Shown in pieces: positions 9,104-52,991 of a DNA stretch of 52,991 bases (the stretch's first letter is position 1; the number at the start of each line of letters is the position of its first letter). The position numbers and the translations under genes are program-made. The DNA comes from a bacterium (GTDB lineage: Bacteria; Patescibacteriota; Dojkabacteria; B142; OLB20), in assembly GCA_037138855.1 (NCBI GenBank), contig JBAXHO010000003.1, forward strand, positions 1-52,991. The letters run 5' to 3'. The notes under the pieces are model-generated. The model was given only the letters and a program-made list of their open reading frames with translations. It did no database searches and was not told the origin of the DNA.

Positions 9104-9286
9104 ATGGGATTTTTCAGAGGATTAGGGGAATTAGTTATTTCTCCAGTAAGAATAGTTACAAAAACAGCAGATAGCATGATTAATGATGATTGGGATGATG
9201 TAGATATTTTATCTCTAGGAACATCAAAAATCATAAAGAGCGTTGGTGAAGAAGCTGAAGATATTGAGGATGCTTTCGATGACTAA
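9104..9286 (+). CDS. Small acidic hypothetical protein
   Basis: ATG 9104 after gaggg; overlaps the next start. Confidence 0.55.
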   Translation: MGFFRGLGELVISPVRIVTKTADSMINDDWDDVDILSLGTSKIIKSVGEEAEDIEDAFDD

Positions 9287-9893
9287 ATACCTGATAACGC
9301 CTAGCCTTCTTTCGAGTTACGCTTACTACATCCAAGACGAATGGAAAAGCCCTGCGGAAAGTAGGGCTGACTTTTTGAGGACTTTAAGTAGAGAAAAATT
9401 CGCTCCAAACGAAGCTATGAAGAAAGGAAACGCTTTGGAAGATTCTATTAGTGGAAAAGCCAAAGGAATTCCAGCACCAGAAGGTCATCCAATTTATGAA
9501 ATTGGGAAGATAGTGAGTGGCGGGCTTTGGCAACAATCAGTCAAAAAAGAAATAAAAGTTGGCAATCAAGAGTTTTTACTTTACGGACGCACCGATGTTA
9601 TCAAGCGCGATACTGTTTATGATATTAAATTCACTAGCAATTATGAACTTGGTAAATTTTTAGACTCAAGCCAACACTTGATTTATCTTTATTGCTCTGA
9701 TTTGCCTAATTTTTCCTACCTTATCTCTGACGGCAAGGATTGGTGGAGAGAGGATTATGTTAACGATGGAAATGTAGAAAACAGGATTAAGTCAATGATT
9801 AGCGATTTTATGGGATATTTAGAAAACGACAAAGAAGCTAAGGAAATGTTTTTAACCAAATGGGAATCAAAAAACAATAACAATGCGCAATGA
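9279..9893 (+). CDS. PD-(D/E)XK phage exonuclease
   Basis: LYGRTDVI...VYDIKFT...SSQH.IY nuclease motifs; start at ATG 9279. Confidence 0.8.
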   Translation: MTKYLITPSLLSSYAYYIQDEWKSPAESRADFLRTLSREKFAPNEAMKKGNALEDSISGKAKGIPAPEGHPIYEIGKIVSGGLWQQSVKKEIKVGNQEFLLYGRTDVIKRDTVYDIKFTSNYELGKFLDSSQHLIYLYCSDLPNFSYLISDGKDWWREDYVNDGNVENRIKSMISDFMGYLENDKEAKEMFLTKWESKNNNNAQ

Positions 9894-9921
9894 AATATTA
9901 AAACAAATTAAGGGGGAGTAG

Positions 9922-10068
9922 ATGAAAGTAAAAGAACTAATAGCAAAGCTACAAGAGTTTGATGAGGAGTTGGAGGTTAAGATTTTTGATTATAATAGCT
10001 ATAAAGCTGCGCAGCTAGAAAAAGCTACACAAGAAAATAGTACAATTTATTTAGAGTGTGGTATTTAA
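9922..10068 (+). CDS. Small phage protein (MKVKELIAKLQEFD type, 48 aa; not in ORF track)
   Basis: Strong SD gggggag; common phage N-terminal pattern. Confidence 0.7.
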   Translation: MKVKELIAKLQEFDEELEVKIFDYNSYKAAQLEKATQENSTIYLECGI

Positions 10069-10103
10069 AAAAATGAAACTTTTATTTATAAATGGGGGAT
10101 AGA

Positions 10104-10328
10104 ATGAAAAGAGACTTTTGTGGAAATTGTGGTAAAGTTATTAATGGGTTTGTATATGGTCCTTGGTATGACAAAAGCTGCGGCAAATGCGTTAGAAAAG
10201 CTTTAAAAGAAGAAGAAAGAGAAGAAAGGAGACTACAAAAAGAAAAAGAAAAGATAGAAATGCAACAATTAAAAAAACAAAAATTAAAATTAGAAATAAA
10301 AAAATTAAAACAAATTAAGGGGGAGTAG
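10104..10328 (+). CDS. Zinc-finger plus coiled-coil small protein
   Basis: CGNC...CGKC and a charged helical tail. Confidence 0.6.
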   Translation: MKRDFCGNCGKVINGFVYGPWYDKSCGKCVRKALKEEEREERRLQKEKEKIEMQQLKKQKLKLEIKKLKQIKGE

Positions 10329-11485: not shown

Positions 11486-11986
11486 ATGCCAGCAGCAATC
11501 CCTCCTTTTAAAAGGTTATTAAGCAATTATAAAGTTAATGAATTAGGTTGTTGGATATGGCAAGGCTCTATTGCGTCCAACTATGGACAAATAAAAGTAT
11601 TTGGAAAAATGAGAACTACTCATAAATATTCATATGAGCTGCATAAAGGAAATATAGATATTGGTTTTGAGGTAATGCATTTGTGTAATAATAAACTATG
11701 TATTAATCCCGATCATTTAAAAAAGGGGACTCATAAACAAAATATGCAACAAGCCGTTAAAGATAAGTTGTTAGATCATAGTAAAATTAAGTATAGAGGA
11801 GTTAGTGGAGTTAAAAGAAGTCAGTCAAAACAGGTTTTTGTAAAAGGAAAAGCTTATGGAAGCCTGAATGAGGCTGAAAAGAAATTAGAAGTTGGCTCTG
11901 GCACGGTGGCTTATTGGATAAAAAATAAACCCGATGTAGCTAGATTCATTTCTAAGGAAGAATATATCAATTTAATAAATAAATAA
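11486..11986 (+). CDS. Free-standing HNH homing endonuclease (HNH_3 with C-terminal DNA-binding HTH)
   Basis: CWIWQG, HKYSYELHKG, VMHLCNNKLCINPDHL, GTHKQN; YGSLNEAEKKL tail. Confidence 0.9.
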   Translation: MPAAIPPFKRLLSNYKVNELGCWIWQGSIASNYGQIKVFGKMRTTHKYSYELHKGNIDIGFEVMHLCNNKLCINPDHLKKGTHKQNMQQAVKDKLLDHSKIKYRGVSGVKRSQSKQVFVKGKAYGSLNEAEKKLEVGSGTVAYWIKNKPDVARFISKEEYINLINK

Positions 11987-13050: not shown

Positions 13051-13274
13051 GATTATATTTGATTGCTTTTATTTTGAATGCTTTTGGATTAATGAGCATT
13101 TTTTGTTATCCTAAGAATAGCCTCGAAAAATATTTGTTAGTCGTTTTTAAATATTTTGGAAAATTAGGAGTGGTTTTTACTTTGCTAATCACAATCTCCT
13201 ATTGCGCCTTCATGTTAATAGATTTGGACTATATTAAGATTTACTTTGTGCAAAAAATTGAAAATAACCATTGA
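13041..13274 (+). CDS. Small two-TM membrane protein
   Basis: SD ggagg; two hydrophobic segments. Confidence 0.6.
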   Translation: MWLGLYLIAFILNAFGLMSIFCYPKNSLEKYLLVVFKYFGKLGVVFTLLITISYCAFMLIDLDYIKIYFVQKIENNH

Positions 13275-13758
13275 AAACGAATTTACTGATAGGCGCATAA
13301 CAATTAAAAGACCTGCTAATATGATTAAAGACATTCGCATTCAAAACTATTGCGGCATAACCGATTTAAAAATTAATGATTGCAAACGGATCAATTTGCT
13401 GGTTGGTAAAAATGGAGTTGGAAAGGAAGAAATATTGCGGTTTGTTTTTGATATAGGGTTGCTTTATAAGGTAAGTTTTAAATGTTTTAGTGAAATAGAA
13501 TATGGCTTACATTATACCGATATGAAAGATTTTTGGTTACAAATTATTGAATTTTCTATTTCAAATACTGTACAGGTTTTTGCCACAACTCACTCTTACG
13601 AAATGATTAAAGCGTTAGTTGAAGCAGCAAAAGAAACTAATCTTATTAAACAAGATGAAATCAGGCTTTATCGGATTAACAAAACTCAAAAAAATCCTAC
13701 AAAATTTGACTCTACTCAAATTGATAAGTTCATAAAACTAGAATGGGAGGTTAGATAA
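13258..13758 (+). CDS. Minimised ABC-type (AAA_15/AAA_21-like) ATPase with degenerate motifs; start is TTG 13258 or ATG 13321
   Basis: IRIQNY, INLLVGKNGVGKE (Walker A), FSEIEYGLH (Walker B/D-loop), QVFATTHS (H-loop); central domain absent. Confidence 0.75.
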   Translation: MKITIENEFTDRRITIKRPANMIKDIRIQNYCGITDLKINDCKRINLLVGKNGVGKEEILRFVFDIGLLYKVSFKCFSEIEYGLHYTDMKDFWLQIIEFSISNTVQVFATTHSYEMIKALVEAAKETNLIKQDEIRLYRINKTQKNPTKFDSTQIDKFIKLEWEVR

Positions 13759-13763
13759 TAAAA

Positions 13764-13922
13764 ATGAGAATAACAATTGAAGATGAGGCTAACAATCAGA
13801 AAATAATACTTGAAAGAGACGCAATTAATTTAGAAGAAATGCTTAATATGCTTGAAGACGCATTACGCGGATCAGGATTTAACTTTAAAGGACATTTGGA
13901 GATTGTGGAAGATGAAAAATAA
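13764..13922 (+). CDS. Small hypothetical protein (52 aa; not in ORF track)
   Basis: MRITIEDEANNQKIILERD...GHLEIVEDEK*; SD ggagg; overlaps the TrpRS start. Confidence 0.65.
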   Translation: MRITIEDEANNQKIILERDAINLEEMLNMLEDALRGSGFNFKGHLEIVEDEK

Positions 13923-14709
13923 GAAAATTGTGGTTAGTGGCATTCAGCCTACAGGAAATTTACACTTAGGAAATTATCTTGGCGCAATTAAACAATGGAA
14001 AGAATTGCAGGAAAATCCTGAATATGAATGCATATTTGGAATTATGGATTTGCACGCGATGACAACAAAGCCAACCATCCCTAATGATAATGAAATTTGC
14101 GGAGAATCTTACGATACTTTTGTGCAATTGATTAAGCTTGGAATTTCTTACAAAAATGTATTTTATCAGTCGCAAAATGTCTCAATTGTACGAATGTACT
14201 GGAAATTGGCTTGTAACACTTCAATCGGACAACTTAATCGCATGACCCAATTTAAAGAGAAATCTGACAAAGGAAATGAAAACCTCGGTTTATTCTCTTA
14301 CCCTGTTTTAATGGCTGCCGACATTCTTGCTCTTGAGGCTGATTTAGTGCCAGTTGGAGAAGATCAAAAGCAACATTTAGAACTCGCAAGAGACTTAGCT
14401 AAAAAACTTGGATTGAAAGTACCAGAGCCTCTTATTTCTGAATCATGCGGGCGTATTATGTCCTTGACTGATCCAGCTAAAAAAATGAGCAAATCTGATC
14501 CGAATGACAATTCACGGATTAATTTAAATGATGAGGCTGAAACCATTAAAAAGAAAATTGGGAAAGCAGTTACAACGCCAGAAGGAATTAAAAATCTTGA
14601 AACTATATTTTATGGATGTGGTGGAAAAGGTGCTTTAATTTGGCAAAATGCAAAAGGTGCTAAAGAAGAATTAGCCGAACATATAATTAAGGAATTAAAT
14701 GCAAAATGA
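13912..14709 (+). CDS. trpS: Tryptophanyl-tRNA synthetase, shortened (265 aa)
   Basis: SGIQPTGNLHLGNYLGA (HIGH-like), DLHAMT, RMTQFKEK, YPVLMAADIL, VPVGEDQKQHLELARD, KKMSKS. Confidence 0.93.
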   Translation: MKNKKIVVSGIQPTGNLHLGNYLGAIKQWKELQENPEYECIFGIMDLHAMTTKPTIPNDNEICGESYDTFVQLIKLGISYKNVFYQSQNVSIVRMYWKLACNTSIGQLNRMTQFKEKSDKGNENLGLFSYPVLMAADILALEADLVPVGEDQKQHLELARDLAKKLGLKVPEPLISESCGRIMSLTDPAKKMSKSDPNDNSRINLNDEAETIKKKIGKAVTTPEGIKNLETIFYGCGGKGALIWQNAKGAKEELAEHIIKELNAK

Positions 14710-14839
14710 ATTTGAGATTGCTGACTTTCAAAGTTTAGAAGAAATAGAGCAGCAAATTATAATACTATTCAAAGCCAAAAGACTTATTTTAGAAAGAGAA
14801 TTAAATAAGATTGATAATTTTTTAAAAATTGAAACTTAG
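14699..14839 (+). CDS. Small coiled-coil protein (46 aa; not in ORF track)
   Basis: SD aagga; overlaps the trpS stop. Confidence 0.5.
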   Translation: MQNEFEIADFQSLEEIEQQIIILFKAKRLILERELNKIDNFLKIET

Positions 14840-14840
14840 C

Positions 14841-14873
14841 GAGATTAATTAGAGATTAACTAGAGATTTATTA
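14841..14873. repeat. 3x11-bp imperfect tandem repeat (gagattaatta / gagattaacta / gagatttatta)
   Basis: Read directly in the intergenic region. Confidence 0.7.
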
Positions 14874-14941
14874 GAAGAACCGCAGCTATACCTTGATAGC
14901 AAAGGATCGGCAACCGATTAAATATAAAATAAAAGTAGAAA

Positions 14942-15325
14942 ATGAATGCTAGAATTTTTAATAAAACAGAAATAAAAAATGGTAAAGAAATTATTGGCTA
15001 CATTCAATTGGTAAGATACCAAGCGAAAGGTGGGCTTCCTCATATTGAATATTCGCTTATTGAAAATTACTGGAATCAACAAATAATGTCTGTCGAGTTG
15101 CCAAAGTTTCTTAAAAAATGTAAAAAACTAGAAATACCGAGATTGATAGCAATGGTTGAGAAGAATAATAAGACTTCAATTAGATTGCTTGAAAAAAACA
15201 AGTTTATCAAAATTGCTACTTTTGATGACAAGTTTGGATATGTACTAGCTCAAGATTTAATGTTAGAGATTGGGATATTTAATAAGAACGCAATTAAAAG
15301 CATGGGAGCTATAAATGGCAAATAA
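14942..15325 (+). CDS. RimJ/RimL-like GNAT-fold protein, truncated and degenerate
   Basis: IIGYIQL, HIEYSLIENYWNQQIM and IAMVEKNNKTSIRLLEKNKF match the Acetyltransf_3 pattern. Confidence 0.65.
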   Translation: MNARIFNKTEIKNGKEIIGYIQLVRYQAKGGLPHIEYSLIENYWNQQIMSVELPKFLKKCKKLEIPRLIAMVEKNNKTSIRLLEKNKFIKIATFDDKFGYVLAQDLMLEIGIFNKNAIKSMGAINGK

Positions 15326-15809
15326 TATTTTTTTCATCAGCGATACTCATTTTGGACACAGCAGTATTCTTAATTTTAGAGATAACCAAAATAATCCAGT
15401 CCGTCCCTTTGCAAGTATTGAAGAAATGAACGAGACTTTAATTGACAATTGGAATAAAGTTGTGCGCCCTCAAGATAAAATTTACCATTTAGGAGACGTG
15501 GCAATTCCAAGAAAAGGCTTAGATTGTCTTGCTAAATGTAATGGCGATAAAATTTTAGTGCGCGGCAATCATGATATTTTTAAACTCAAAGATTATACTA
15601 AATATTTCCGAGATGTTCGCGGATATGTTGTGTTAGAAAATTATTTAGCAAGCCATATTCCAGTTCATCCTGATTCAAAAGGAAGGTTTAAAAAGAATAT
15701 TCATGGTCATTTGCATACTAATAACTTGGAAGATGATTTTTATATTAATGTTTCGGTTGAGCAAATAAACTTTACCCCTATCGCTTGGGAAGAGGTAAAA
15801 TTAAAATGA
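15315..15809 (+). CDS. Calcineurin-like metallophosphoesterase
   Basis: SDTHFGH, HLGD, RGNHD, SHIP and HGHLH motifs. Confidence 0.92.
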   Translation: MANNIFFISDTHFGHSSILNFRDNQNNPVRPFASIEEMNETLIDNWNKVVRPQDKIYHLGDVAIPRKGLDCLAKCNGDKILVRGNHDIFKLKDYTKYFRDVRGYVVLENYLASHIPVHPDSKGRFKKNIHGHLHTNNLEDDFYINVSVEQINFTPIAWEEVKLK

Positions 15810-25174: not shown

Positions 25175-28100
25175 CTATTTTTTAGCTGGTTTTAAAATAA
25201 AATCTATTGGCGCAGGTTCGCCTCCTTCTCTTTCTTCTTTTAAAGCTTTTAAGAAAATATCAATTTGCGCTCCACCGCCTATTGTAAAGATTGCAGAAGT
25301 TTCATTTATTCCTTGCATAACTTTGATTAAATCAACTTCTTCATCCTCACTTACGGCATTAACAGCTTCTTTTCCTAATTTACTTATTCCTTCACCAACT
25401 ATTGAAATTCCTTTAAATCCTGATGGATTATAAGAATCTTTTCCATAACTCCAACCAGAATAAATTTGGCTTGCTACAGGAATTGGAGAAAGAAGCGATC
25501 CAGCAATTAAATTTGCATAATGTAGAGTTTTATCTTCCTCATCATCTTCGCCTCTACCAGAAAGCAAATTAGAAATTCCCTCTCTTAAAAATTCAGTTAA
25601 AATTGCATCTACAGCAAATAATAAAGCAAAATCAGAAATAAACTTAGCAGTATCTTTTGGCTTTTTAAAGTTTGTTTGGCGATAACTTCCAACCAGCAAA
25701 TTAAGCTTTACATTAGCATAATTTCCAAAGATTGTAAAAGCTTTTACAAGTGCTGAATCATCTCTTTGGATTGCCGAAAGAGATTGTTTATAAGAAGAGC
25801 CTTGAGTTTCAATTAACAATCTATCTGCAAGCTCTACCGCCTTCGCATCATCGCCTTTAAAATCTTTTAATCCTTTGTAATAAGCTCCGTACCAAGTTGG
25901 CAAATCTGCTAACATTTGCATTTTAGTTGTAGCTAAAAAAGCGAATTTAGTAATATCTTTGCGAATTTTACCAGCTTTGTGCATATGGTCAAAAACCTCG
26001 TAAATATCACGAGTCATTGTTTTTGAACGATTTTCTAAAATTTTAGATTTTGCAAAAGCTAGTTTAGCAGCTTTATTAATTGAAACAGGATTGCCATTTC
26101 CTAAAGCTTTCCAAATACCTAAGCCCATGTTTTTGTAACCAATTTTTACAATTGATTGCAAAAGACCAGTAGGTTGAATTATCGCAGTTGCTAATTTAAA
26201 AGCCATTGTCCAAGTTACAGTTATGTCTCTTGATAAATTAGCAGCCTTAGCAATAAAACTTTCTTGCGTAATAGTGCGTCCATACATATCATAAACCCAA
26301 GATTGCAACTGCTTATATTCAGCAATTCCAATTTTCTTAACTAAATTTGTTTTTAACCTTCTGTTGTTTATAATTCTGTAAGCATTCCATGCAGCGGGCT
26401 TCATGGCAATAATATTAATTGCCTGAGTTAAATGCTTTGAAAGAGGGTTTAAATCTAAAACAATTTTTTTGGTTACTTTTTGATCAGTTCTTTCTTTTGT
26501 CATAGACTCATGAAAAGAGACTTCATCAAAACCAGTTCCAAATAAAGTCTCTTTCAAATCTTGTACAGTGTCTGATTTAAAATTAGCTTCTGCTGTGTAA
26601 GCTAAAGGATAATAACCACCTTTTAAAGAAACTTCCTGACCATCTTTAGAAACAATTTTAAGAGGTACTGAATTTTGTTTCTTAGCTGCAATTCCGAAAA
26701 GCTTCTTTTGAGTTGATTCAATACCAGACCAATAGCTATTAACTAAATCCCAAATATCTTGAACAAACTCTAACTCATTTTTGTTTAAAGAGGAAATAAT
26801 ATCTATAACTTGAGCATCCGAATAGTTAAATCCGTCCCTTACGCGAGTTCTGTTAATTTCATTTCCCCAGTTCAAAGCAAATGCAAGAACTGCTTTTTTA
26901 GGATAACTTTTGCCAACTGAATCAAAATAAGTTCTTTTATCGGAAATCTTATAGCCGCCAAAGTGTTTATTATAAATAGCATCAACTTTTTTATAAAGTT
27001 CATCAGACATTTTATGTTTTTCCAATTCTGCTGCATTTAAATCTTTTTCAAAAAGCTGATAAAATTCTCCAAGATTTTTTTCACCATCAATCTTAAGAGT
27101 AGTCTGGCTAGTTTTAATTAAAGAAGAAGCATAAGAATCAAAAGCTTTAACTAATTTTTCTCTTTCGGTTGGGGCTTCTATTTCAGGTTTATCTTTTTTG
27201 ATGTTGGTATTTGCTTGCTCGATAATTCTGTCAACAATTGAATTTAGTTCTTGTTTCTTGCCATTAACTTCCAAGATATTTATATTACGCCCAACAGTAA
27301 CAAGATTTTGTATTGCATCATCAAGCGTTCTAAATTCATCAGTTGTAAGCGAGCGAATATTATCTTTATCTTGAAATTCTCCTAATTCAGGAAATTCAAC
27401 CAGTCCCAAAACACCAGAATTGGTTTGCTCTTGCTTCCATTTATCTAAAGCTTCAGCATTGGTTTTTTGATAATCTACGCCTTTAGGGGCTAAATTAAAA
27501 TCTTGAAGAAGATTAACAGCTTTTAATCTGAAATCCTCATCAATTGTAACTTTGCCAGCTTTGGGTTTTTTCTTAATTCCAGTATAACTCTTAAGAGCTT
27601 TCTGAACTTCATTTTTAATTGCAAGGCTTTCTCTAAAAAGATAATGGTTCAGGAGTTGTTTTTTCTTCCACTCAACAGCTTTCTCATAATCCTTTTGACC
27701 AAGTGCTTTGCCAGCTTCTCTGGCTGCCTTTACTTCATTTAAATAGAAAGTATTGGTGTCGGTTGCATCTTTAATTTGTTTAGTCGCTATGATTTCTTTG
27801 GCTTTTTGCTTATAAGCTTCTTTAGTTTCAACATAAGTTTTAACTTTTCTATTGGCTGCATTTAGCTCGTAGAGAATTTTGTTTGCACGCGCTTCATTTT
27901 CAGAGGCATTAAGAGCTTCGTTCTCAATTGTGCCATCATAAAGCATATCACCATAGCGTCTTACCATCTCCGCATCGGTAGCCTTCTTTAATTCCTCTTT
28001 AAAGTTTGGAACATTTGCGATTGCATAAAGCATTTGTCCAGCATCATTAAAACCAAATTCTTCGGCTACCATATCCACGGGAACGCCGTCTTTGGCAAGA

Positions 28101-31100
28101 ATGTCAGCAGGAAGGTATTTTAAAAACTCTGTGTCATAATTGTTTTTAATATCTTCGCGGCTTAGTTTATAACCTGTAGCGCCTTCAACTGGCTCTTCGC
28201 CAAGTAATTGACCAGTTTTCAAAAAATGAACAAGGCGGAAAGTTTTATCTTGATTCATTTCTAATTCAACTTCTTTCTTTACCGCCGCCCTTTCTTCTTT
28301 GTAGAATTTCTTGTTCTCAATTTCCTTTTGCTTCAAAGCCTTAGTCAAAAGTTTTTCTTTAGCTTTCTCATTGGCAGTGTCGTTAAGTTTTTGATAATCC
28401 TTCTTTTCAGCAGCCGTAAGCAATTCTAAAATTTGATCGTCAGAACGAAATATTGGATTGTTTTTTAATGACTCAATTGCTTCATCTGATGCAAACATAC
28501 GATCAAATACACCCCTTACATCATTGGTAAGTTTGACATTTAAATTTTTAATATTGTCATTATAAATTCTAATTAACCAACTTTTAAATCTTGCAAAAGC
28601 ATCTCTTAAAGCAATCGATGGTGCTTTACCTTCAAATAAATAAGCCTCAAAACCACGAGCAAATTTCTCATGCGCTTCTGTGGTAATGTTTCCGTCTTTG
28701 ATTCCTAGCCAGTTTTCAAGAATTTTCCAATCTTTCTTTATTTGTTCAGAAACATTTGGAACGGCAGCGATGTCTCGGTTGATTTGTAAAAAGACATGTC
28801 CTAGTTCGTGGAGAACTGTAGATTTGTTTTTGTTTTCAAAAAGGGTGATAATTGGCTTTTGTCCAATGAATTGAGTTTGTCCTCTTGGGTTTGATTCATT
28901 TTGAAATAATGGCAATCCTTGTCTTTGGATTGACTCGCGCATTGCGGGGGTGATTTCTACAGCGTGTTGTAATTTACCTGTGTCGGATAAATATTTTTTA
29001 TATAATTCGCTATTATTATTTATATCTTTTTGTGCGTCATTAAAAGAATAATCATTATTTATATTTTTCCACACCCAATCTCTAAATGTTAAAATTTTAT
29101 TTTGATTTTTAGAGGGAGTGCTACTATTGCCCAACTCAATAGCTTCAACCTTACCACCAAACTTCTTAGCCAACTTATTCACCATCGTTGGCACAATTTT
29201 ATCGTAGAAGGCTTTCATGCCTTCGCCGCCTACTTTTAGATCGTCACCTTCAATTCTTACAGTTTTAGTGCCCTGCATTGGTTCGTTCTCTAGTAACTTC
29301 TTAGCAGCATCCTTTCCAACAAAAGATTCTAATTGATCTGGAGAAATATTGTTTTTTAACTCAGTACGATCTCCAGCTCTAAATGCTAATTGAGAGTCGT
29401 TTTTGTTGTAAGAAATCCAAGAAACCTGCTTACTCAAATCATATCTTTCAGCCTGCTGCTCACCAGTTGTCCAAGCAACTTTGTCAAAGCCGTTTTCAAC
29501 CGCCCAGAGTAAGGCACGTTTAAAGGCTAGTTCGTTCCAAGTGGTTTTGAAGGGGGCGTTGGGAACTCTCATATAAGAATCATAAGCTTCTTCATATTTT
29601 TTCAAAAGAGATTCTGGCGCTTTAGCTTCCAATAAATCTGTATAAGATACTTGACCAAAGGGCTTATTTACGCCAATAGCTTTTATTTCCTCTTCTACTT
29701 TTTTAAGTAGTTCTGCGTCTTTATACCCCTTTTTCCTCCCCTCTTGGTGCCAATCGCTTTGCAACTCTTCCACAAACATAACGCGCTTGCCTTCTGCATC
29801 TGTGCGTTCATTAAAGCGGATATGGGCTAAAATATTTGGTTCATCGTAGTGGGAGGATTTGTAGATAGAAGATTTCTCATCTTTGCGTAAATTTTTAGAT
29901 TTTAAATAATTCTTAATTATTTGTTTTTGCCCTTCTTCTAATTTGTAGTCTTCCAATAAGTTTGGATTTTCAATTAAATCGTCTAGGGCTTTACCAGCGC
30001 TATCATAATTATCTTTCCAACTTCCTTCTTGCTCTATTAAGGCTCTGGCTGCAATTCTTAATGAGCCTATCTCTTGTTTGTTAATAGATTCTTGAACTGG
30101 CAAAGTCAGCAACAACTCGCGATAATTCTCGCCACCTGCTAGGGTGTATTTTTCGAATTTGGTATTAGGTTTTTCAGTTTTTGCTGCATCCAATCTATCT
30201 CTTAAATTGTCTCTGATCTCTCTTAATCTATTTAACTCTTGATTTGGCAGTTTATCTTGAATTCCTTTGTTGACCACAAACGCAGCTTTTTCATATTCTT
30301 TTTCAAGGATTTCAGCTTCATTTTTACCCTTAACAACCTCCTCAACCTCAATCTTATTAGCCTTTAAATAATCAAGAATCTGCTCTTTAGTAACGCTGCC
30401 TTTCTGCTCTTTTATCCAGTCTTCAATTCCAGTCCAATCAAGCTCTTCTTGTTTAACGCCTTTTTGAGTTAGGTTTTTAATTATGCCAGCCCATTGCTCG
30501 GGTGAACCTTTGCCTTGCGGTAAATCGGTGATTTGTTTTTCTAAAGAAGAATAGAAGGTTGGGGTGGTTTGGTAATATGTTTTTACAACCTTAATTGCAG
30601 CGTCATCAAAAACTACGTAATTGTGGTGGCCTTCTTTTTTATTACGACTGTTGCCATCAAAATATTTTATGCCATTTATTCCATTGGCATGAAGAAACTT
30701 AGAAGCTCCTTCATCGTTACGAGAATAATCTTTAAGACTACTTGGAAACCCGTCATCCTCAGCTACTTTTTTAAGAAGTTGATAAAGCTCATTTCCGCTT
30801 AATTCATAAATATCATCCGCATTCCAATCGCTAAGATAATCTATCATATCTTCTTGAGGAATCTGATCAAATGCTTTTTTTACGGCTTCTTGTATGTTAG
30901 GCGGCTGCTTACTCAACATATTATCCCAATCCAACATAGTATCAGCTTCAGGGATATTTACTTCGTAAAGTTGCCCTTCTTTTGCCTTTTGATATATCTC
31001 CACAATTCCTAAATCGTGATTCAGGTTTGATATTTCGTTTTCCAACTTTTCTAAATCAGCTTTTAATTCTTTTTTTTCTTTTGAAAAAAATCCAATTTTA

Positions 31101-34100
31101 GAAAGATCGTTTTTTATATTTAATTTTTCAGAAGTCTTTTCGTCCAGTTTCTTTTTTAGGATTTTAATAACTTCGGGAGCTGCATCTTTTAAATCTTTTC
31201 CAGTTCTATACTTTAAAGATATTTCAGGTGTTAGTAAAAAAATTCCTTTACTAAGGTCGACTGATAATTTTTTTCTATACCATTCTGCAATTTCCTTGTC
31301 ACCAGCAAAATAAAGCCCCCAACCAAAAGCCTGCGCCCCTTCTCCACCTCCAATATTGTCTAACGTAAATTTATCAAATTTGTAAGGAGTTCCATGAAAA
31401 GCAGATTGATAATAAATATTCGGATTTTCAGAATCAAAAGTGCCTTTGTTTTCTACGGATTTGATTTGGGTTGGGTCAAAGGCTACATAAACATCACCAG
31501 CTTTTGATTTTTCATTATTATTGTAATTGTCCTTAACATTTTTAACAACAACGCCATCAAAACCATTTTTCTTTGCATAATCAACAATCTGTTTTGTGCC
31601 TACTAACTTTTCCCCATTAATTTCAGTTTGAAATTGTCTCCAAACTTTATTTTCAGCGTTGACAACTAGAGGATTTTTAATGGCTAAATATGTTTTTACA
31701 ACTCCACCTTGAGCGTTTTGATAATCATAAGCTCTTTTCTCATCGGTGTATGATTTTGCCTTAGCAAGAGAACCAGTAAAATAATAAGCTCTATTTTTAT
31801 CTTCGCTGCCAAATTGCTCATTAGCAGTTTTAAAGATTGGATCTTGATTAAACTTATTTAATTCTGGCATTCCATGATAAACAACCAAAGGCTTACCATT
31901 CTCATCAACTACTTTTGAATCTCCGAACCATTTCTTAAAGGCTGGGGTTTGGGTTTGGTCTTGAGCTTGATTAAAAGTTTGACCTTCAAACTCTTTAATT
32001 GCTTTCTTAATCTCTTCATTGCTTGCATTAATATCAATTCCAGCCCTGTCTAGCTCTTCTAGGAATGATTTAACTTGGTCTTGTTCTGCGTTAGGAGCGT
32101 GGGAAATATCTTCTCCGCCAATCTCTTTTGCAAGTAGGTCTAGGAAATGCTGACGGTCAACATATTCGCCTTGGGTTTTGATTTCAGCATGAGGGAATTT
32201 TGTTTGTAGTTCGCTTGCTACGAAGTTGTCAACATTGCCAAGGCCACCTTGTTTTTTGAATAAGCCAACCATTGTTTTAGGATTAATTCCTAAAGCAGCT
32301 AATTCACCTGCAAGATTTGATCCTAATTGAACGCCGCCTTTTTCTTTAAGCATCTTAATAAGAGGCTTGCCAGCTTTAGGGGTTTTGATTGGTTTACGGG
32401 CTTTGTCTAGGAATAAATCTAGGTCTTCAATTTTATTAACAGCTTTAAATGGCGTTTCTTTGTAAATACCATTGTTTAATTCAAGCTGCCCAAGGTAACT
32501 ATTTAAAATTTTTTTCGCTTCTTCTTCTCCAACTCTAGAACTAACTGTATCATAGTAAGCTTGAGTTTTTGTAATAACTTCTTTAGCATCGCGATAAGGC
32601 ATTCCTAAATTAAGGATTTGCTTTTCAATGTTTTTCTTTACTGCATCTTGTTCTGTAAATGATTTTTTTTGCTGTTCTTGATAATGAATATTTGGGACAA
32701 CATTTTGTAAGAAAGCATCTTGGGCTTCTAAATCAGAAAAGCTTTCAGGGCTTAGCTTCATAAAATCTTCAAGACCAGCAGCTTCGGGAATATTAACTAA
32801 TGCGGCAGCTACGTCATTGCCCTTAAGAACAATATTCCCGCCAGTATCAAGAGCTTCTTGTATTTGAGTTTGAATTTCAGGAAGTGCGGCATTAATTACC
32901 TCTATTTCTTGAGGGGTTTTGCTTTGAAAATATGTTTGAACTTGATCGGCAGAAAGATAAACAGATTGTTCGCCAAGTGTTTCAGCAGTAGCTTCTTTAA
33001 AAGCTTCAGGGCTTCTTTGCAAAATTTTACTTTGTTTCGCTTTTTCAACAACATCTTTAATTGTTTTTTTATCTTCAGCCTCTTGTTGTCTTTTTTCAAC
33101 AATTCTAGCGGCATAATCTACAGTTGCGCCCGCAGTTGCGAAGCCAGCACCCCCAATTGATCCAGCAACAAAACTTTGTTTTACACGATTAGAAACCTCT
33201 TTGCTGCCTAAATATTGCAAGATTGATTCAGGAGTTACCTTATCTTTTTCAGTGCCAAAAGATTTAAATTTTCCTTCTGAAACATATTTTGCAGCTTCAC
33301 CTAAAATAACATTGGAATATTCTTGCGCTGCTTCTGTAGTTCCTTCAGCCAACATTGTGCTTGCAATGTTTTTAAGATATTCGCGACCAATAGAAGTTTT
33401 TAAAAGTTCTTCTGCGGATTCTTTAGTAAAAAGTTTTTTAAATGGTTCTGTTGCAACTTTAGCAGGAATAAGTTCTAATAATCCACCAATTCCACCAGTT
33501 AAAATTGCAGCACCAGCAGCAACTGATTTTTCAATTGGTTTGCCTGTTTCATCTACAAAATTTTTATATTCGCCATAAGAATCAGCTGTCATTCTTTTTG
33601 AGCTTTCAGTAAAAACTCCAGCTCCAGCGCCTGACCTACCAAAAGCCTTAGAGCCAATTTTAAAACCAAGTTTAGCACCTGGTATAATTGCTTCTGGCCC
33701 AGCAAATGCCCCCGCTACAGCTCCAATTGCTCCACTAGCCAAACCAGTTACACCATAACCTTTTACCGCTCCATAACCCATTTGCACTACAGTGGGAATT
33801 TGCCCTAAAGTATAAGCTGGAATTTGCGCTGCTAATTCAGTTGCGTCATTTTTAAAAAGCCCAAGTTTATAATCAGTATTTTGTAATTTTTGTAAATCTC
33901 TTTCAGCAAAATAAAGTTCGTTTAATTCTTTATTGCTTAACTTAAAATTTTCATTGCCAGTTACATCAAAAGCCATGCTTTTAAGCCCTAAATCGGTGGT
34001 TTGGCGACCAATTTCGTTGCTTTGAAATTCTTTTTTAGTATTGCCAACTATCTTTTCAAAATAAGTAAGATTATCTACATCATCGCGCAACATTGCGGTT

Positions 34101-34447
34101 TTAGAAGAATCGGCTAATTGAGCAGCAGTTTTTGGGAAATTATTAACTAAATCATCGTAACTAATTGAATTAAGCTCCGTCATTTGCTTAATTTCATTTT
34201 CTTTAGCTCTTACTGTTTCAATAGGAATGCCAGTAGCACGCGACATTTGATATTGTTGTGTTGCTTTCTCAGGAGGGATGGGAGTTGAAGCAAATACATT
34301 AGTTTTAATTTGGCTTGCCTTATTAGTTTTTTCTTCATTATTAATCGAATCTAAAGCATCAAAAAAACCAGTAGCACCATTTCTTTTTGCTGTGTCCTCT
34401 GCGTTTATTGAATCTAGTGCGTCAAAAAAACTGCTATTATTTTTCAT
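25175..34447 (-). CDS. Giant internal virion/ejection protein, polyvalent (two ART-like domains, an EELQSD domain and an HExxH zincin)
   Basis: 3090 aa; PAFKKWFGDSKVVDENGKPLVVYHG...FDPTQIKS; AFHGTPYKFDKF...GEGAQAFGWGLYF; VEELQSDWHQ; LHELGH...HEKFARGFEAY; sits at the internal-protein locus of podoviruses. Confidence 0.85.
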   Translation of the reverse strand: MKNNSSFFDALDSINAEDTAKRNGATGFFDALDSINNEEKTNKASQIKTNVFASTPIPPEKATQQYQMSRATGIPIETVRAKENEIKQMTELNSISYDDLVNNFPKTAAQLADSSKTAMLRDDVDNLTYFEKIVGNTKKEFQSNEIGRQTTDLGLKSMAFDVTGNENFKLSNKELNELYFAERDLQKLQNTDYKLGLFKNDATELAAQIPAYTLGQIPTVVQMGYGAVKGYGVTGLASGAIGAVAGAFAGPEAIIPGAKLGFKIGSKAFGRSGAGAGVFTESSKRMTADSYGEYKNFVDETGKPIEKSVAAGAAILTGGIGGLLELIPAKVATEPFKKLFTKESAEELLKTSIGREYLKNIASTMLAEGTTEAAQEYSNVILGEAAKYVSEGKFKSFGTEKDKVTPESILQYLGSKEVSNRVKQSFVAGSIGGAGFATAGATVDYAARIVEKRQQEAEDKKTIKDVVEKAKQSKILQRSPEAFKEATAETLGEQSVYLSADQVQTYFQSKTPQEIEVINAALPEIQTQIQEALDTGGNIVLKGNDVAAALVNIPEAAGLEDFMKLSPESFSDLEAQDAFLQNVVPNIHYQEQQKKSFTEQDAVKKNIEKQILNLGMPYRDAKEVITKTQAYYDTVSSRVGEEEAKKILNSYLGQLELNNGIYKETPFKAVNKIEDLDLFLDKARKPIKTPKAGKPLIKMLKEKGGVQLGSNLAGELAALGINPKTMVGLFKKQGGLGNVDNFVASELQTKFPHAEIKTQGEYVDRQHFLDLLAKEIGGEDISHAPNAEQDQVKSFLEELDRAGIDINASNEEIKKAIKEFEGQTFNQAQDQTQTPAFKKWFGDSKVVDENGKPLVVYHGMPELNKFNQDPIFKTANEQFGSEDKNRAYYFTGSLAKAKSYTDEKRAYDYQNAQGGVVKTYLAIKNPLVVNAENKVWRQFQTEINGEKLVGTKQIVDYAKKNGFDGVVVKNVKDNYNNNEKSKAGDVYVAFDPTQIKSVENKGTFDSENPNIYYQSAFHGTPYKFDKFTLDNIGGGEGAQAFGWGLYFAGDKEIAEWYRKKLSVDLSKGIFLLTPEISLKYRTGKDLKDAAPEVIKILKKKLDEKTSEKLNIKNDLSKIGFFSKEKKELKADLEKLENEISNLNHDLGIVEIYQKAKEGQLYEVNIPEADTMLDWDNMLSKQPPNIQEAVKKAFDQIPQEDMIDYLSDWNADDIYELSGNELYQLLKKVAEDDGFPSSLKDYSRNDEGASKFLHANGINGIKYFDGNSRNKKEGHHNYVVFDDAAIKVVKTYYQTTPTFYSSLEKQITDLPQGKGSPEQWAGIIKNLTQKGVKQEELDWTGIEDWIKEQKGSVTKEQILDYLKANKIEVEEVVKGKNEAEILEKEYEKAAFVVNKGIQDKLPNQELNRLREIRDNLRDRLDAAKTEKPNTKFEKYTLAGGENYRELLLTLPVQESINKQEIGSLRIAARALIEQEGSWKDNYDSAGKALDDLIENPNLLEDYKLEEGQKQIIKNYLKSKNLRKDEKSSIYKSSHYDEPNILAHIRFNERTDAEGKRVMFVEELQSDWHQEGRKKGYKDAELLKKVEEEIKAIGVNKPFGQVSYTDLLEAKAPESLLKKYEEAYDSYMRVPNAPFKTTWNELAFKRALLWAVENGFDKVAWTTGEQQAERYDLSKQVSWISYNKNDSQLAFRAGDRTELKNNISPDQLESFVGKDAAKKLLENEPMQGTKTVRIEGDDLKVGGEGMKAFYDKIVPTMVNKLAKKFGGKVEAIELGNSSTPSKNQNKILTFRDWVWKNINNDYSFNDAQKDINNNSELYKKYLSDTGKLQHAVEITPAMRESIQRQGLPLFQNESNPRGQTQFIGQKPIITLFENKNKSTVLHELGHVFLQINRDIAAVPNVSEQIKKDWKILENWLGIKDGNITTEAHEKFARGFEAYLFEGKAPSIALRDAFARFKSWLIRIYNDNIKNLNVKLTNDVRGVFDRMFASDEAIESLKNNPIFRSDDQILELLTAAEKKDYQKLNDTANEKAKEKLLTKALKQKEIENKKFYKEERAAVKKEVELEMNQDKTFRLVHFLKTGQLLGEEPVEGATGYKLSREDIKNNYDTEFLKYLPADILAKDGVPVDMVAEEFGFNDAGQMLYAIANVPNFKEELKKATDAEMVRRYGDMLYDGTIENEALNASENEARANKILYELNAANRKVKTYVETKEAYKQKAKEIIATKQIKDATDTNTFYLNEVKAAREAGKALGQKDYEKAVEWKKKQLLNHYLFRESLAIKNEVQKALKSYTGIKKKPKAGKVTIDEDFRLKAVNLLQDFNLAPKGVDYQKTNAEALDKWKQEQTNSGVLGLVEFPELGEFQDKDNIRSLTTDEFRTLDDAIQNLVTVGRNINILEVNGKKQELNSIVDRIIEQANTNIKKDKPEIEAPTEREKLVKAFDSYASSLIKTSQTTLKIDGEKNLGEFYQLFEKDLNAAELEKHKMSDELYKKVDAIYNKHFGGYKISDKRTYFDSVGKSYPKKAVLAFALNWGNEINRTRVRDGFNYSDAQVIDIISSLNKNELEFVQDIWDLVNSYWSGIESTQKKLFGIAAKKQNSVPLKIVSKDGQEVSLKGGYYPLAYTAEANFKSDTVQDLKETLFGTGFDEVSFHESMTKERTDQKVTKKIVLDLNPLSKHLTQAINIIAMKPAAWNAYRIINNRRLKTNLVKKIGIAEYKQLQSWVYDMYGRTITQESFIAKAANLSRDITVTWTMAFKLATAIIQPTGLLQSIVKIGYKNMGLGIWKALGNGNPVSINKAAKLAFAKSKILENRSKTMTRDIYEVFDHMHKAGKIRKDITKFAFLATTKMQMLADLPTWYGAYYKGLKDFKGDDAKAVELADRLLIETQGSSYKQSLSAIQRDDSALVKAFTIFGNYANVKLNLLVGSYRQTNFKKPKDTAKFISDFALLFAVDAILTEFLREGISNLLSGRGEDDEEDKTLHYANLIAGSLLSPIPVASQIYSGWSYGKDSYNPSGFKGISIVGEGISKLGKEAVNAVSEDEEVDLIKVMQGINETSAIFTIGGGAQIDIFLKALKEEREGGEPAPIDFILKPAKK

Positions 34448-41243: not shown

Positions 41244-42131
41244 TTAAGCAGGAACGTTCACAAGTGAAGTACCGTCAGTGTAAAACTTGTAAATACCAGT
41301 ATCTTGGATCACTTTCGCGCCCATGTAGAAGTTAGCATTCACGAAGTAGTAGCTGTTTTGTTGGTCGTAACCAGCGTCAACAGTTGGAGTACCTTGACCA
41401 GAAAGATCCGCAGCAAGACCAATAGCATTTTTATGATAAATGTAGTTGGTTTCTGAAGAAGTTCCAGCTCCAGTCAAGCCAGGCATAACGATAAAATTAA
41501 TACCCATCCATCTATATGTACGTGGCTCATCTTTCCATTTCAAATCCAATTCAGGAGTTGGAGTTTTGCCAACATATAGTTCATTAGCAAAGTTAGGCAA
41601 TTTGTATAATTGAGCAAAAACAGAAGGTTGAATAACCGCAGTAATATTGCCGTCCATTGGGATTTTAGCAGCAGTCAATTTCGCTAATAGAGCAGCAAAA
41701 GTATCTGTTGAGATAGAAGTCAATGGATCAGAAGACCATGCAGTTTGAGAACCAGCGTCTAATTGATCTAAAATAACTTTATCAATAGAACGGTTGATTT
41801 TGCCAATTGCGGCTTCAGTCATAACTCTTTCGATATCACCTTGAGAACCAAGAATATCTTCTTTGTTACGAACGTCTTTAGCAAATTGCATCTGCATCGT
41901 AGCAGTGTATTGAGCTTGAGTGAAAGTGCTTGATGGTACGAAACCGTTTGCACCGCGAGTAACGGCGTAATCGTTTCCAGTATCAGCAACTTCAAACACA
42001 GCTTGATGGCCTTTTGCTTGGAATTGGGTTAATACGGAATTGTAAAGAAGTTTTTGTCTTCTTTGGAAGCCTAGAACGATCTCGTTTCTATAGACTACTA
42101 AAGGAGCACTAGGAGTAAATGCAACAGTCAT
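41244..42131 (-). CDS. Major capsid protein
   Basis: Follows the scaffold gene; RSIDKVIL, RWMGINFI, YHKNAIG and GAKVIQDTGI podoviral capsid pattern. Confidence 0.85.
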   Translation of the reverse strand: MTVAFTPSAPLVVYRNEIVLGFQRRQKLLYNSVLTQFQAKGHQAVFEVADTGNDYAVTRGANGFVPSSTFTQAQYTATMQMQFAKDVRNKEDILGSQGDIERVMTEAAIGKINRSIDKVILDQLDAGSQTAWSSDPLTSISTDTFAALLAKLTAAKIPMDGNITAVIQPSVFAQLYKLPNFANELYVGKTPTPELDLKWKDEPRTYRWMGINFIVMPGLTGAGTSSETNYIYHKNAIGLAADLSGQGTPTVDAGYDQQNSYYFVNANFYMGAKVIQDTGIYKFYTDGTSLVNVPA

Positions 42132-43276: not shown

Positions 43277-43590
43277 TATTTAGTTTTGTTGTTAATAGGA
43301 TTGTTTTCCTTGAAAATGTCGATGTTTGAAACGGCTGCTATTGATAGCAACGCTCCAACATGCCTAACACCTTCATTGAAACTTGTTATTGCGTGGCTTT
43401 CGTTAAACGAAGGCGCTGCGGATCTGCAAAGCTTGTTAATGATGGTCGAGTAAGCTAGTTGTTGTTCATATTCGTTAGCTCTTCCTTTAGCTACTTTCTG
43501 AAGGGCAATTACTTCGTCTTTCTTGATGAGATCATTTAAATCAACTCCTCCAAAGAAGTTTTTGGCAAATAAAGTTTTGGTTTTAGACAT
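43276..43590 (-). CDS. Bbp19-like protein
   Basis: TSFNEGVRHVG motif; between portal and scaffold. Confidence 0.7.
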   Translation of the reverse strand: MSKTKTLFAKNFFGGVDLNDLIKKDEVIALQKVAKGRANEYEQQLAYSTIINKLCRSAAPSFNESHAITSFNEGVRHVGALLSIAAVSNIDIFKENNPINNKTK

Positions 43591-45269: not shown

Positions 45270-45616
45270 TAGCCACCGAATTGATTAGTTAAAAGAGTTG
45301 AGGCTCTTCCGCTTCTTTGTTGTAATTGCGTTAGAGTGTTAGCTCTTTGTGCTTGCACTGTTGCACTGTCAGGAGTTGGGGCAACTTGTGGCGTTGATAT
45401 TGGTTTGAGAAGACTTCCTTGGAGTTTTTTAGCGTTTTCGGTTGCTTTAGCAGCAGTTTTCATAGCATAACCAGATGCCACAGCTGGTGCGGCACCAACT
45501 AATCCAGCTCCTAAAAGGGCAGGAGCGACAATCCCAGCAGCAGCGCCGCCAGTTAAAGCAATTGCTGAAATTGCTGCCACTGTCATTAAAGCATTTCCTG
45601 AGCTTTTACCACTCAT
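45269..45616 (-). CDS. Small virion protein (pre-portal, T7 gp7.3-like position)
   Basis: Ala-rich; GRASTLLT C-terminal motif. Confidence 0.65.
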   Translation of the reverse strand: MSGKSSGNALMTVAAISAIALTGGAAAGIVAPALLGAGLVGAAPAVASGYAMKTAAKATENAKKLQGSLLKPISTPQVAPTPDSATVQAQRANTLTQLQQRSGRASTLLTNQFGG

Positions 45617-52640: not shown

Positions 52641-52991
52641 ATGAAAAAAACATTAAAAGAATTTTTAGAGAAAAATCACGCTTGCAAAGATGGCTTTGAT
52701 TTTGCGAAAGACTTAACACTTGAGGAGTTTTTAAACACTTGCGAGCGCGGTGATTGGATTTTGTGGCTATTTGCTAAAACTAACGCTGATTCTTTGCGAG
52801 AATTCACTTTGGCAAAGGGACATTGCGCGAATACCGTGCGGGAATTGATGAAAGACAAGCGAAGCACTAGAGCGGTTGATGTTGCAATTGCATTCGGTGA
52901 AGGTAAGGCGACAAGGGAAGAATTAGATGATGCTGCTGCTGCTGCTTATGCTGCTGATGCTTATGCTGCTGATGCTTATGCTGCTGATGCT
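52641..52991 (+). CDS. N-terminal part of the join-spanning Imm5-like / Ala-rich repeat protein
   Basis: MKKTLKEFLEKNHACKDG...RGDWILWL...DKRSTRAVDVA...ATREELDDAAAAAYAADA, open to the window end. Confidence 0.8.
   Translation, partial: MKKTLKEFLEKNHACKDGFDFAKDLTLEEFLNTCERGDWILWLFAKTNADSLREFTLAKGHCANTVRELMKDKRSTRAVDVAIAFGEGKATREELDDAAAAAYAADAYAADAYAADA

Follow-up and report, generated by a model that had tools for sequence, protein, structure and literature searches.

The window analysed here, a stretch of 52,991 bp that is one entire contig (C3) within a 1.89-Mb, 131-contig metagenome bin, carries a trpS gene whose product is a tryptophanyl-tRNA synthetase (TrpRS) of only 265 amino acids. This protein (P0001) has the fold and catalytic motifs of bacterial TrpRS, lacks the C-terminal helix, is under purifying selection as a member of a family of similarly short proteins, and is encoded in an accessory cassette of a phage genome. 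A hypervariable block within the near-invariant enzyme is its most unusual feature. We think P0001 is probably a working, miniaturised bacterial-type TrpRS, a CP1-joined dimer that uses ATP to activate tryptophan and loads it onto the tRNATrp of the host. Coordinates of the features discussed are collected in Table 1.

Table 1. Positions in the window of the short trpS gene, its parts and the genes around it (ORF, open reading frame).
Feature	Positions	Strand	Remarks
Short trpS gene	13912..14709	+	ATG 13912 to TGA 14707-14709; 265 amino acids plus stop; P0001
HIGH-type signature TGNLHLGN, residues 14-21	13951..13974	+	From the translation
Hypervariable block, residues 52-96 (helix, strand, CP1 start)	14065..14199	+	From alignment entropy
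tRNA-contact cluster Q154, E157, R160, D161	14371..14394	+	Equivalent to E. coli Gln152, Glu155, Arg158, Asp159
KMSKS loop, residues 191-195	14482..14496	+	K, M, S, K in 58/58; last S in 57/58
Compact helical domain	14563..14706	+	Anticodon-loop equivalent K218-A-V-T221-T222; helices 223-235 and 247-261; invariant K251
Accessory cassette, 979 bp (trpS and 46-amino-acid ORF)	13905..14883	+	Skipped in a near-identical phage contig
Upstream 52-amino-acid ORF	13764..13922	+	Overlaps trpS start by 11 nucleotides; tight operon packing
Downstream 46-amino-acid ORF	14699..14839	+	Overlaps trpS stop by 11 nucleotides, in another frame
Major head protein	41244-42131		Phage gene on C3
T7-type portal	43590-45269		Phage gene on C3
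Terminase large subunit	45613-47196		Phage gene on C3

A family of short TrpRS proteins

The trpS gene starts at ATG 13912 rather than at the TTG at 13852 given in the ORF listing, and all 58 family members begin at the equivalent of this ATG, with MK(N)KKIVVSG. The motifs named in the initial annotation (TGNLHLGN, HAMT, MAADIL, GEDQ and KMSKS) and the length of 265 amino acids are all borne out by the translation, in which HAMT occupies residues 48-51, MAADIL 134-139, GEDQ 149-152, ARDLA 159-163 and KAVTTPEGIKNL 218-229. The residues of TGNLHLGN are conserved in the following numbers of the 58 sequences: T 57, G 57, N 47, L 58, H 57, L 55, G 58 and N 54. P0001 matches PF00579 of Pfam (E 1.4e-65) and scores 247.1 bits against the NCBIfam trpS equivalog TIGR00233 (cut-off 176.75), with only positions 2-224 of the 328 in that profile covered. 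Among sequences of solved structures, 81 distinct chains match at E ≤0.001, the best being E. coli TrpRS (1.6e-55, query residues 3-223).

Relatives were gathered by a search of 5.8 billion proteins, in which 8000 candidates were scored. The top matches are 57 clusters of 253 to 286 amino acids, located on contigs of at most 59 kb and 63-87% identical to P0001 by BLASTP (62-88% in the 58-row alignment A1). Below them in the ranking are two fragments, and then comes a sharp fall to full-length proteins of 323 to 344 amino acids. Every sequence in A1 stops 40-48 residues past G225, and the ends and motifs are shared by all; without the variable block, pairwise identity among the 58 clusters is 61-100%. 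A metagenome scan with the family alignment yielded 80 loci, none above 54% identity and all of the full-length TrpRS type; its patterns were too generic, and it gave no further short-family DNA. Scanning genome contigs with a pattern back-translated from one family motif gave 11 loci, which are cyanobacterial and Ktedonobacteraceae, and the same scan of IMG/VR found only two loci, L008 and L009, both already known. In a collection of 50,697 phage records, megablast with 20 kb found no match, and tblastn matched 37 records, all below 60% identity to P0001 and many of them bacterial-looking. One tblastn match is a Ralstonia phage record, an unannotated 'UNVERIFIED_ORG' entry.

Comparison with five full-length relatives (alignment A2) locates what has been trimmed. 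In P0001 the stretch that follows ARDLAKKLG is 8 residues shorter and the one that follows KAVTT about 14 shorter, the C terminus ends about 45 residues early, and a few more residues are lost in the middle of the helical domain. The alignment to the closest full-length relatives thus agrees with the initial annotation as to the shortened segment after ARDLA, the internal deletion after KAVT and the absence of the last long helix. In PMC12135181, the C-terminal helical domain of E. coli TrpRS is delimited as residues 184-298, and the helix formed by 299-334 is assigned to the aminoacylation domain. The helical domain of P0001 has about 75 residues, compared with 115 in E. coli, and most of it is kept in compact form. 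The initial description of a "trimmed anticodon-binding domain" is therefore correct about the trimming but incomplete, since the aminoacylation-domain helix corresponding to 299-334 is also gone.

A model of P0001 was built with AlphaFold2 (AF2) from the 58-row family alignment alone, and has a mean predicted local distance difference test score (pLDDT) of 87.4 and a predicted TM-score of 0.82. The top Foldseek matches of this model are bacterial TrpRS proteins, with TM-scores of 0.73-0.86 normalised to the query. By VIA-align, model residues 4-265 superpose on residues 1-285 of Bacillus stearothermophilus TrpRS (Z 27.5, root-mean-square deviation 2.3 Å, 257 residues aligned) and on residues 3-290 of E. 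coli TrpRS in its tRNA complex (9lpc_A; Z 25.4, 255 aligned), such that the correspondence to the E. coli enzyme stops at about residue 290.

Two copies of P0001 folded with the family alignment gave a score of 0.65, compared with 0.01 for the best control. Of 30 proteins solved as one-chain pairs, 20 reach this mark; of 23 solved as single chains, 1 does. Contact agreement between runs was at least 91%, and partner pLDDT was at least 84. The predicted interface (residues 47, 50-51, 53, 59, 87-108 and 123-133) is CP1, as expected for TrpRS. P0001 is predicted to homodimerise through CP1, with the qualification that the dimer score may reflect likeness rather than binding because many TrpRS dimers have been solved.

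The catalytic core is intact, as the initial annotation proposed: the fold aligns to solved TrpRS structures, and the catalytic residues are invariant in all 58 sequences. H48, M134, D137, G149, D151, Q152, K191, M192, S193 and K194 are present throughout, S195 in 57 sequences and E150 in 55. The tryptophan pocket is presumably formed by the histidine of HAxT (H48) and by the methionine and aspartate of the MAADIL helix (M134 and D137). Counterparts of the D1-switch residues I4, F26, Y33 and F37 that PMC5272822 lists are, mapped only by the N-terminal offset of the structural superposition and a two-residue insertion relative to E. coli, V7, W29, Y38 and F42, of which the last three are invariant.

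The ratio of nonsynonymous to synonymous substitution rates (dN/dS) was estimated by the Nei-Gojobori method for the three pairs formed by three DNA copies, namely the window, L008 and L009. It is 0.12-0.18 for the whole gene, 0.08-0.12 for the core outside residues 52-96, and 0.22-0.32 for the tail (residues 224-265) in two of the three pairs, dS of the third not being estimable. Whole-gene dS is 1.3-1.7, and because dS is saturated these ratios are only rough. The family is nonetheless under purifying selection. The truncation is also absent both from the bin's own TrpRS proteins (497 and 335 amino acids), which are the candidates for the host lineage, and from the 61 closest full-length relatives (320-345 amino acids).

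An exhaustive, profile-free search of 1.84 billion representatives revealed further short forms: P0269 (258 amino acids), P0330 (236), P0356 (254) and P0389 (258). We inferred a quick IQ-TREE tree of 82 rows, comprising 22 family members (P0001 and 21 drawn at random from the 58), these 4 far-short forms, 3 intermediates, 51 full-length proteins and the two TrpRS proteins of the bin; the full-length rows are 19 from the search of 5.8 billion proteins and the first 32 proteins of 315-345 amino acids from the profile-free search. The 22 sampled family members form one group (SH-aLRT 91), which P0269 and P0330 adjoin on long branches (SH-aLRT 91). P0356 and P0389, from contigs of 2.5-6.6 kb, form a separate pair (SH-aLRT 100) within a full-length group. 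They end at the same structural point (...ELGK and ...ELEK) and, read by eye, keep the Gln and Glu that correspond to the G73 readers as well as the Thr and Lys. A second lineage has independently lost the same C terminus. No donor lineage can be named because the deep branches are unresolved.

A variable block in a present-or-absent cassette

Logan contigs from four lake or freshwater sequencing runs were aligned to positions 13246-15809 of the window at a likeness of at least 80%. A contig from run X5 (record 14; 31,002 nucleotides, depth 51) follows 13761-13904 with 5 other letters and then 14884-15809 with 8 other letters. Joints in run X8 connect 13904 to 14935, 13911 to 14942 and 13277 to 14939, two of which may have other sequence between them, and a contig of 2064 nucleotides from run X4 follows 13830-14707 with 10 differences and diverges right past the trpS stop. 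We conclude that trpS comes and goes as a single unit at a flexible site. The downstream genes for GNAT and phosphoesterase persist where it is missing.

The letters near the cassette edges include a small repeat. Just past the 46-amino-acid ORF, positions 14841-14870 hold three tandem copies of an 11-nucleotide unit bearing GAGATT, and another GAGATT lies at the left junction (13899-13904). The 8-mer TAGAGATT, which contains this motif, is not enriched in the window (5 observed, 3.25 expected).

Residues 52-96 of the protein vary far more than their surroundings. Mean column entropy is 2.58 bits in this block, 0.30-0.46 bits in the four blocks that cover residues 1-51 and 97-222, and 1.56 bits in the tail (223-265). 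None of the 45 positions in the block is invariant among the 58 sequences, compared with 73 of 220 elsewhere, and mean pairwise identity is 26% in the block as against 79% in the rest of the protein. The length of the block ranges from 36 to 66 residues, and its identity is nearly uncoupled from that of the rest (r = 0.17). As a control we used 61 full-length TrpRS proteins (from the 62 proteins P0060-P0121, with one fragment of 153 amino acids dropped). At comparable core divergence (core identity 0.81) their equivalent block is 63% identical, and block and core identity correlate at r = 0.95 over all pairs. Secondary structure is still predicted within the variable block (helix 59-75, strand 83-85, helix 90-100), and the buried-looking positions L73, G77, I78 and Q86 are conserved at 90% or more. 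Several clusters (P0006, P0033, P0037 and P0043) have an insertion of about 20 residues inside the block, and the same block variants are found in otherwise unlike sequences (for example, P0003 and P0011). Because identical variants recur across different backgrounds, exchange of the block by recombination is suggested.

The reading we prefer is that loss of the C-terminal helix bared a surface of the Rossmann fold, which may now be free to drift and recombine. This fits the observation that the independently truncated lineage of P0356 and P0389 also has a shortened, divergent block.

A different account, which we regard as possible though unlikely, is that P0001 acts as a spare synthetase against a defence in which a host toxin inactivates the host TrpRS, as HipT-type kinases might, or depletes charged tRNATrp; the block would then reflect escape from a TrpRS-binding host factor. 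HipT is reported to target TrpS (PMC10627512), the presence or absence of a cassette in otherwise nearly identical genomes is a usual trait of defence and counter-defence genes, and the hypervariable block partly borders the predicted dimer interface and shows an uncoupling from the core that cellular TrpRS proteins do not. However, KMSKS is unchanged, such that there is no obvious escape at the target site, and the 93%-complete bin, itself not established as the host, yielded no HipA_C kinase. The HipT and decoy idea of the initial annotation finds no support here. In addition, the block has a dN/dS of 0.33-0.76, indicating relaxed more than clearly positive selection (three sequences, with dS saturated), and the short, divergent block of the independently truncated lineage fits a structural knock-on of helix loss. 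A related and bolder proposal is that a monophyletic phage lineage has arrived at the shortest self-sufficient TrpRS seen here (236-286 amino acids), that its surface block records an evolutionary contest with a host factor able to bind or sense TrpRS, and that the gene travels on a mobile counter-defence cassette exchanged between phages. This seems to us doubtful.

tRNA contacts and proposed function

Residues of E. coli TrpRS were mapped to P0001 by HMMER alignment, whose numbering reproduces Tyr100, Arg106, Gln152, Glu155, Arg158 and Thr225-Ser227 of PMC12135181. In that paper, Gln152 and Glu155 read the discriminator G73, Arg158 and Asp159 contact acceptor-stem phosphates, Asp226 and Ser227 read C35 N4 and A36, and the mutants Q152A and E155A have lower tRNA-dependent activity. 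The equivalents of the G73 readers, Q154 and E157, are each present in 58 of 58 sequences. R160 (Arg158) is found in 57 and D161 (Asp159) in 52. Of the other residues that contact acceptor-stem phosphates, Arg106 has an invariant equivalent (R110, 58/58), and Tyr100 is replaced by serine in all 58 (S104). The invariance of the G73 readers is hard to explain unless tRNA is still a substrate, because the Q152A and E155A mutations cut tRNA-dependent activity.

Among the four side chains that read bases of the anticodon, two are kept and two are changed. T221, equivalent to Thr225, is threonine in 53 sequences and serine in 5, and K251, equivalent to Lys274, is invariant (58/58; mapped through the sequence alignment A2, not by superposition); the changed ones are the equivalents of Asp226 and Ser227.

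We propose the following course of events. P0001 retains the complete Rossmann and CP1 catalytic body and the compact helical domain of about 75 residues, having lost its last 45 or so. As a homodimer joined through CP1 it would activate tryptophan with ATP and, during infection, charge the host's bacterial-type tRNATrp (G73), thereby giving the phage its own supply of Trp-tRNATrp. The tRNA would be recognised chiefly through G73 and the acceptor stem, with a reduced anticodon contact made by the Thr and Lys. The gene is an accessory cassette of the early or middle region and not a core phage gene. According to PMC5272822, domain deletions in B. stearothermophilus TrpRS indicate that neither CP1 nor the anticodon-binding domain can be spared if catalysis and Trp/Tyr specificity are to be complete, with a 10^5-fold coupling between them. 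This joint requirement is probably also why the compact helical domain has been retained.

Several observations weigh against this proposal. The X5 contig shows that trpS is dispensable. The helix that folds back onto the aminoacylation domain in E. coli TrpRS (299-334) is absent from P0001, and two anticodon-loop positions depart from E. coli: T222, at the position of Asp226, is threonine in 54 of 58 sequences, and position 223, equivalent to Ser227, is P in 25, D in 11, E in 8 and other residues in 14. No tRNA gene, and so no phage tRNATrp gene, was found on the contig. Tryptophan makes up 1.23% of phage ORFs and 0.98% of those of the bin (per-contig standard deviation 0.23%, a difference of about 1 standard deviation); because this use is only slightly above that of the bin, a simple argument from tryptophan demand is weak. 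As to the bin supplying the host, its main TrpRS (497 amino acids) is only 40% identical to P0001 and its second (335 amino acids) 33%; nucleotide matches between the contig and the rest of the bin do not exceed 21 nucleotides and include no spacer-like match; and the portal gene was found in 0 of 23 genomes of the same order.

The changed anticodon contacts raise the prospect of altered or relaxed tRNA reading, in which charging would depend mainly on G73 and the acceptor stem, or would extend to other tRNAs, for example ones with suppressor-like anticodons. The replacement of the Asp226 and Ser227 equivalents and the shortening of the anticodon loop by about 14 residues are in its favour, and to this extent the "relaxed anticodon recognition" initially suggested has a basis. 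It is at odds, however, with the retention of T221 and K251. Moreover, the same short Thr-Thr loop occurs in P0363 (299 amino acids) and P0260 (322 amino acids), and because both carry it together with the C-terminal helices, the loop is not peculiar to truncated forms. Stop codons also show no sign of being recoded, since under table 11 the ORFs stay open for as many as 3090 amino acids, and the phage has no tRNA gene. We judge altered reading to be rather improbable.

Aminoacyl-tRNA synthetase paralogues that lack a full anticodon domain and have non-translational roles do exist. By analogy, P0001 might make Trp-AMP for another acceptor, produce a signalling nucleotide of the Ap4A type, or pass tryptophan to a substrate of the neighbouring GNAT protein, and GNAT-like ORFs are indeed located downstream of trpS in both the window and L009. 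We give this little credence. A partnership with GNAT was rejected on the grounds that GNAT is kept in the X5 contig without trpS and is absent beside trpS in L008, and identity between the GNAT-like proteins of the two loci is just 23% (E 0.007). Q154, E157, R110 and K251 are invariant although their E. coli counterparts contact tRNA only, which makes the earlier idea of a Trp-AMP or Ap4A producer a poor fit, and a purely tRNA-independent role is unlikely on this sequence evidence. Least credible, and in effect excluded, is a decaying, non-functional fragment of a captured host gene, because the dispensability of the gene and a length below that of all 61 closest full-length relatives are outweighed by dN/dS of 0.12-0.18, far from 1, at dS >1.2, by 58 clusters that retain the same architecture, ends and motifs, and by a confident model (pLDDT 87.4).

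The phage contig and related systems

That trpS is phage-encoded, as the initial annotation stated, is supported by the other genes of the contig. In addition to the terminase, portal and major head genes (Table 1), there are structural genes for a 916-amino-acid tail protein and a 3090-amino-acid virion-type protein, and the opposite arm encodes Sak4, HNH, SSB, phosphoesterase and GNAT proteins. The ORF of 3090 amino acids (25175-34447, minus strand), whose C-terminal 1250 residues match PHROG 9880 of unknown function (E 4e-264), probably encodes a giant protein of the internal virion or ejection type. Positions 1-49 and 52943-52991 are an exact overlap of 49 bp, inside a short-period coding repeat rich in GCT and GAT. 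The overlap of the two ends points to a complete genome of about 52.9 kb, circular or permuted, although the contig may instead have broken at the repeat. A scan for promoters and terminators gave counts no higher than in shuffled sequence.

We considered whether the 46-amino-acid ORF that follows trpS might provide the lost C-terminal helix, either in trans or through frameshifting, and rejected the idea: the ORF shows no similarity to the full-length TrpRS P0060, has no conserved counterpart in L008, L009 or the X4 contig, and the trpS stop is followed by another stop in the same frame. Upstream, an ORF of 170 amino acids (13246-13758, plus strand) matches AAA_15-type ATPase profiles of about 500-600 positions only at their two ends, residues 25-68 corresponding to the P-loop and 83-154 to the C-terminal part, and looks like a second drastically shortened protein beside the short TrpRS. 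The surroundings of trpS in L008 and L009 differ from those in the window, with a DnaB-type helicase upstream and tRNA genes nearby. In L008 a tRNA-Tyr gene (11603-11688) lies about 800 nucleotides downstream of the short trpS, which fits a hot spot of translation support; genes for tRNAs of Thr, Asn and Cys are near trpS in L009 (1393-1545 and 5754-5828), and neither neighbourhood has a tRNA-Trp gene.

When words were sampled from 13246-15809, the sequencing runs that contained at least one-fifth of them proved to be labelled as lake water, as freshwater or as plain "metagenome", or to be unlabelled; the one RNA run contained 0.05 of the words. The contig has a G+C content of 34.8%, the bin 34.6%, and in tetranucleotide use the contig is the most deviant of the 38 bin contigs of at least 15 kb. 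The main TrpRS gene of the bin (contig C31, locus L001, 1495-2988, minus strand) encodes an N-terminal YbaK-type domain (PF04073), and the best named relatives of this protein are from Patescibacteria (Dojkabacteria, Woesebacteria), some with an extra PF03483 domain. The second is located at about 9210-10307 of the 15-kb contig C38 (locus L002), fifth of the 38 for deviant tetranucleotide use, with a second tRNA-Trp(CCA) gene about 40 nucleotides away on the same strand; these may constitute a mobile synthetase/tRNA pair. The nearest full-length relatives of P0001 are at most 58% identical over at least three-quarters of the query, and the few that are named are labelled Rickettsiales, Alphaproteobacteria or Pseudomonadota.

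P0001 resembles the bacterial class Ic TrpRS proteins (E. coli TrpS, B. stearothermophilus TrpRS) in its fold over residues 4-265, in 38-46% identity to solved chains, in the HIGH-type, GEDQ and KMSKS motifs, in the His, Met and Asp of the tryptophan pocket, in the G73-reading Gln and Glu and in the predicted CP1 interface. It differs in being 60-70 residues shorter, without the part matching E. coli residues of about 291-334 and with three internal trims, in the replaced equivalents of Asp226, Ser227 and Tyr100 (the last by Ser), and in the hypervariable residues 52-96.

GluQ-RS/YadB and cyclodipeptide synthases are natural synthetase paralogues without an anticodon domain, and the latter have lost the class I ATP-binding signatures. 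All share with P0001 a class I core without a full anticodon module. Unlike them, P0001 keeps the anticodon-contact loop and Lys, and unlike cyclodipeptide synthases it has intact ATP signatures, with K191-K194 invariant in 58 of 58 sequences.

Phage-borne synthetases are themselves known. The one related mention found in the literature is of a TrpRS gene on HTVC019P-like marine pelagiphage contigs, where it lies in a flexible region of 7 kb (PMC5628999), so that in both cases a phage-borne trpS occupies a region that is flexible between syntenic genomes, a likeness of location. Jumbo phages also have trpS, in a Microcystis phage record annotated as such and in uncultured phages of 640-735 kb, but these are only 34-40% identical. 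The engineered TrpRS constructs presented in PMC5272822, an Urzyme of 130 amino acids and a catalytic domain of 204, show that large deletions are tolerated with some activity left. Those constructs are missing either CP1 or the entire anticodon-binding domain and are about 10^5-fold less active, whereas P0001 keeps CP1 and a compact helical domain under selection. Neither the literature nor the phage collection yielded a description of a monophyletic TrpRS of 253-286 amino acids without the C-terminal helix, with a hypervariable block and with cassette behaviour, and we saw no sign that such a selected lineage has been described earlier.

Nature and selection have here produced a TrpRS without the C-terminal helix and with its helical domain reduced by one-third, a directly testable minimal design. 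It reveals what selection has kept, namely the G73 readers, the Thr and Lys anticodon contacts, CP1 and the KMSKS loop, and also what is dispensable, and so complements the engineered Urzyme work. For the phage, a synthetase cassette that is present or absent in a 53-kb genome points to a conditional benefit, which may be in translation supply or in counter-defence.

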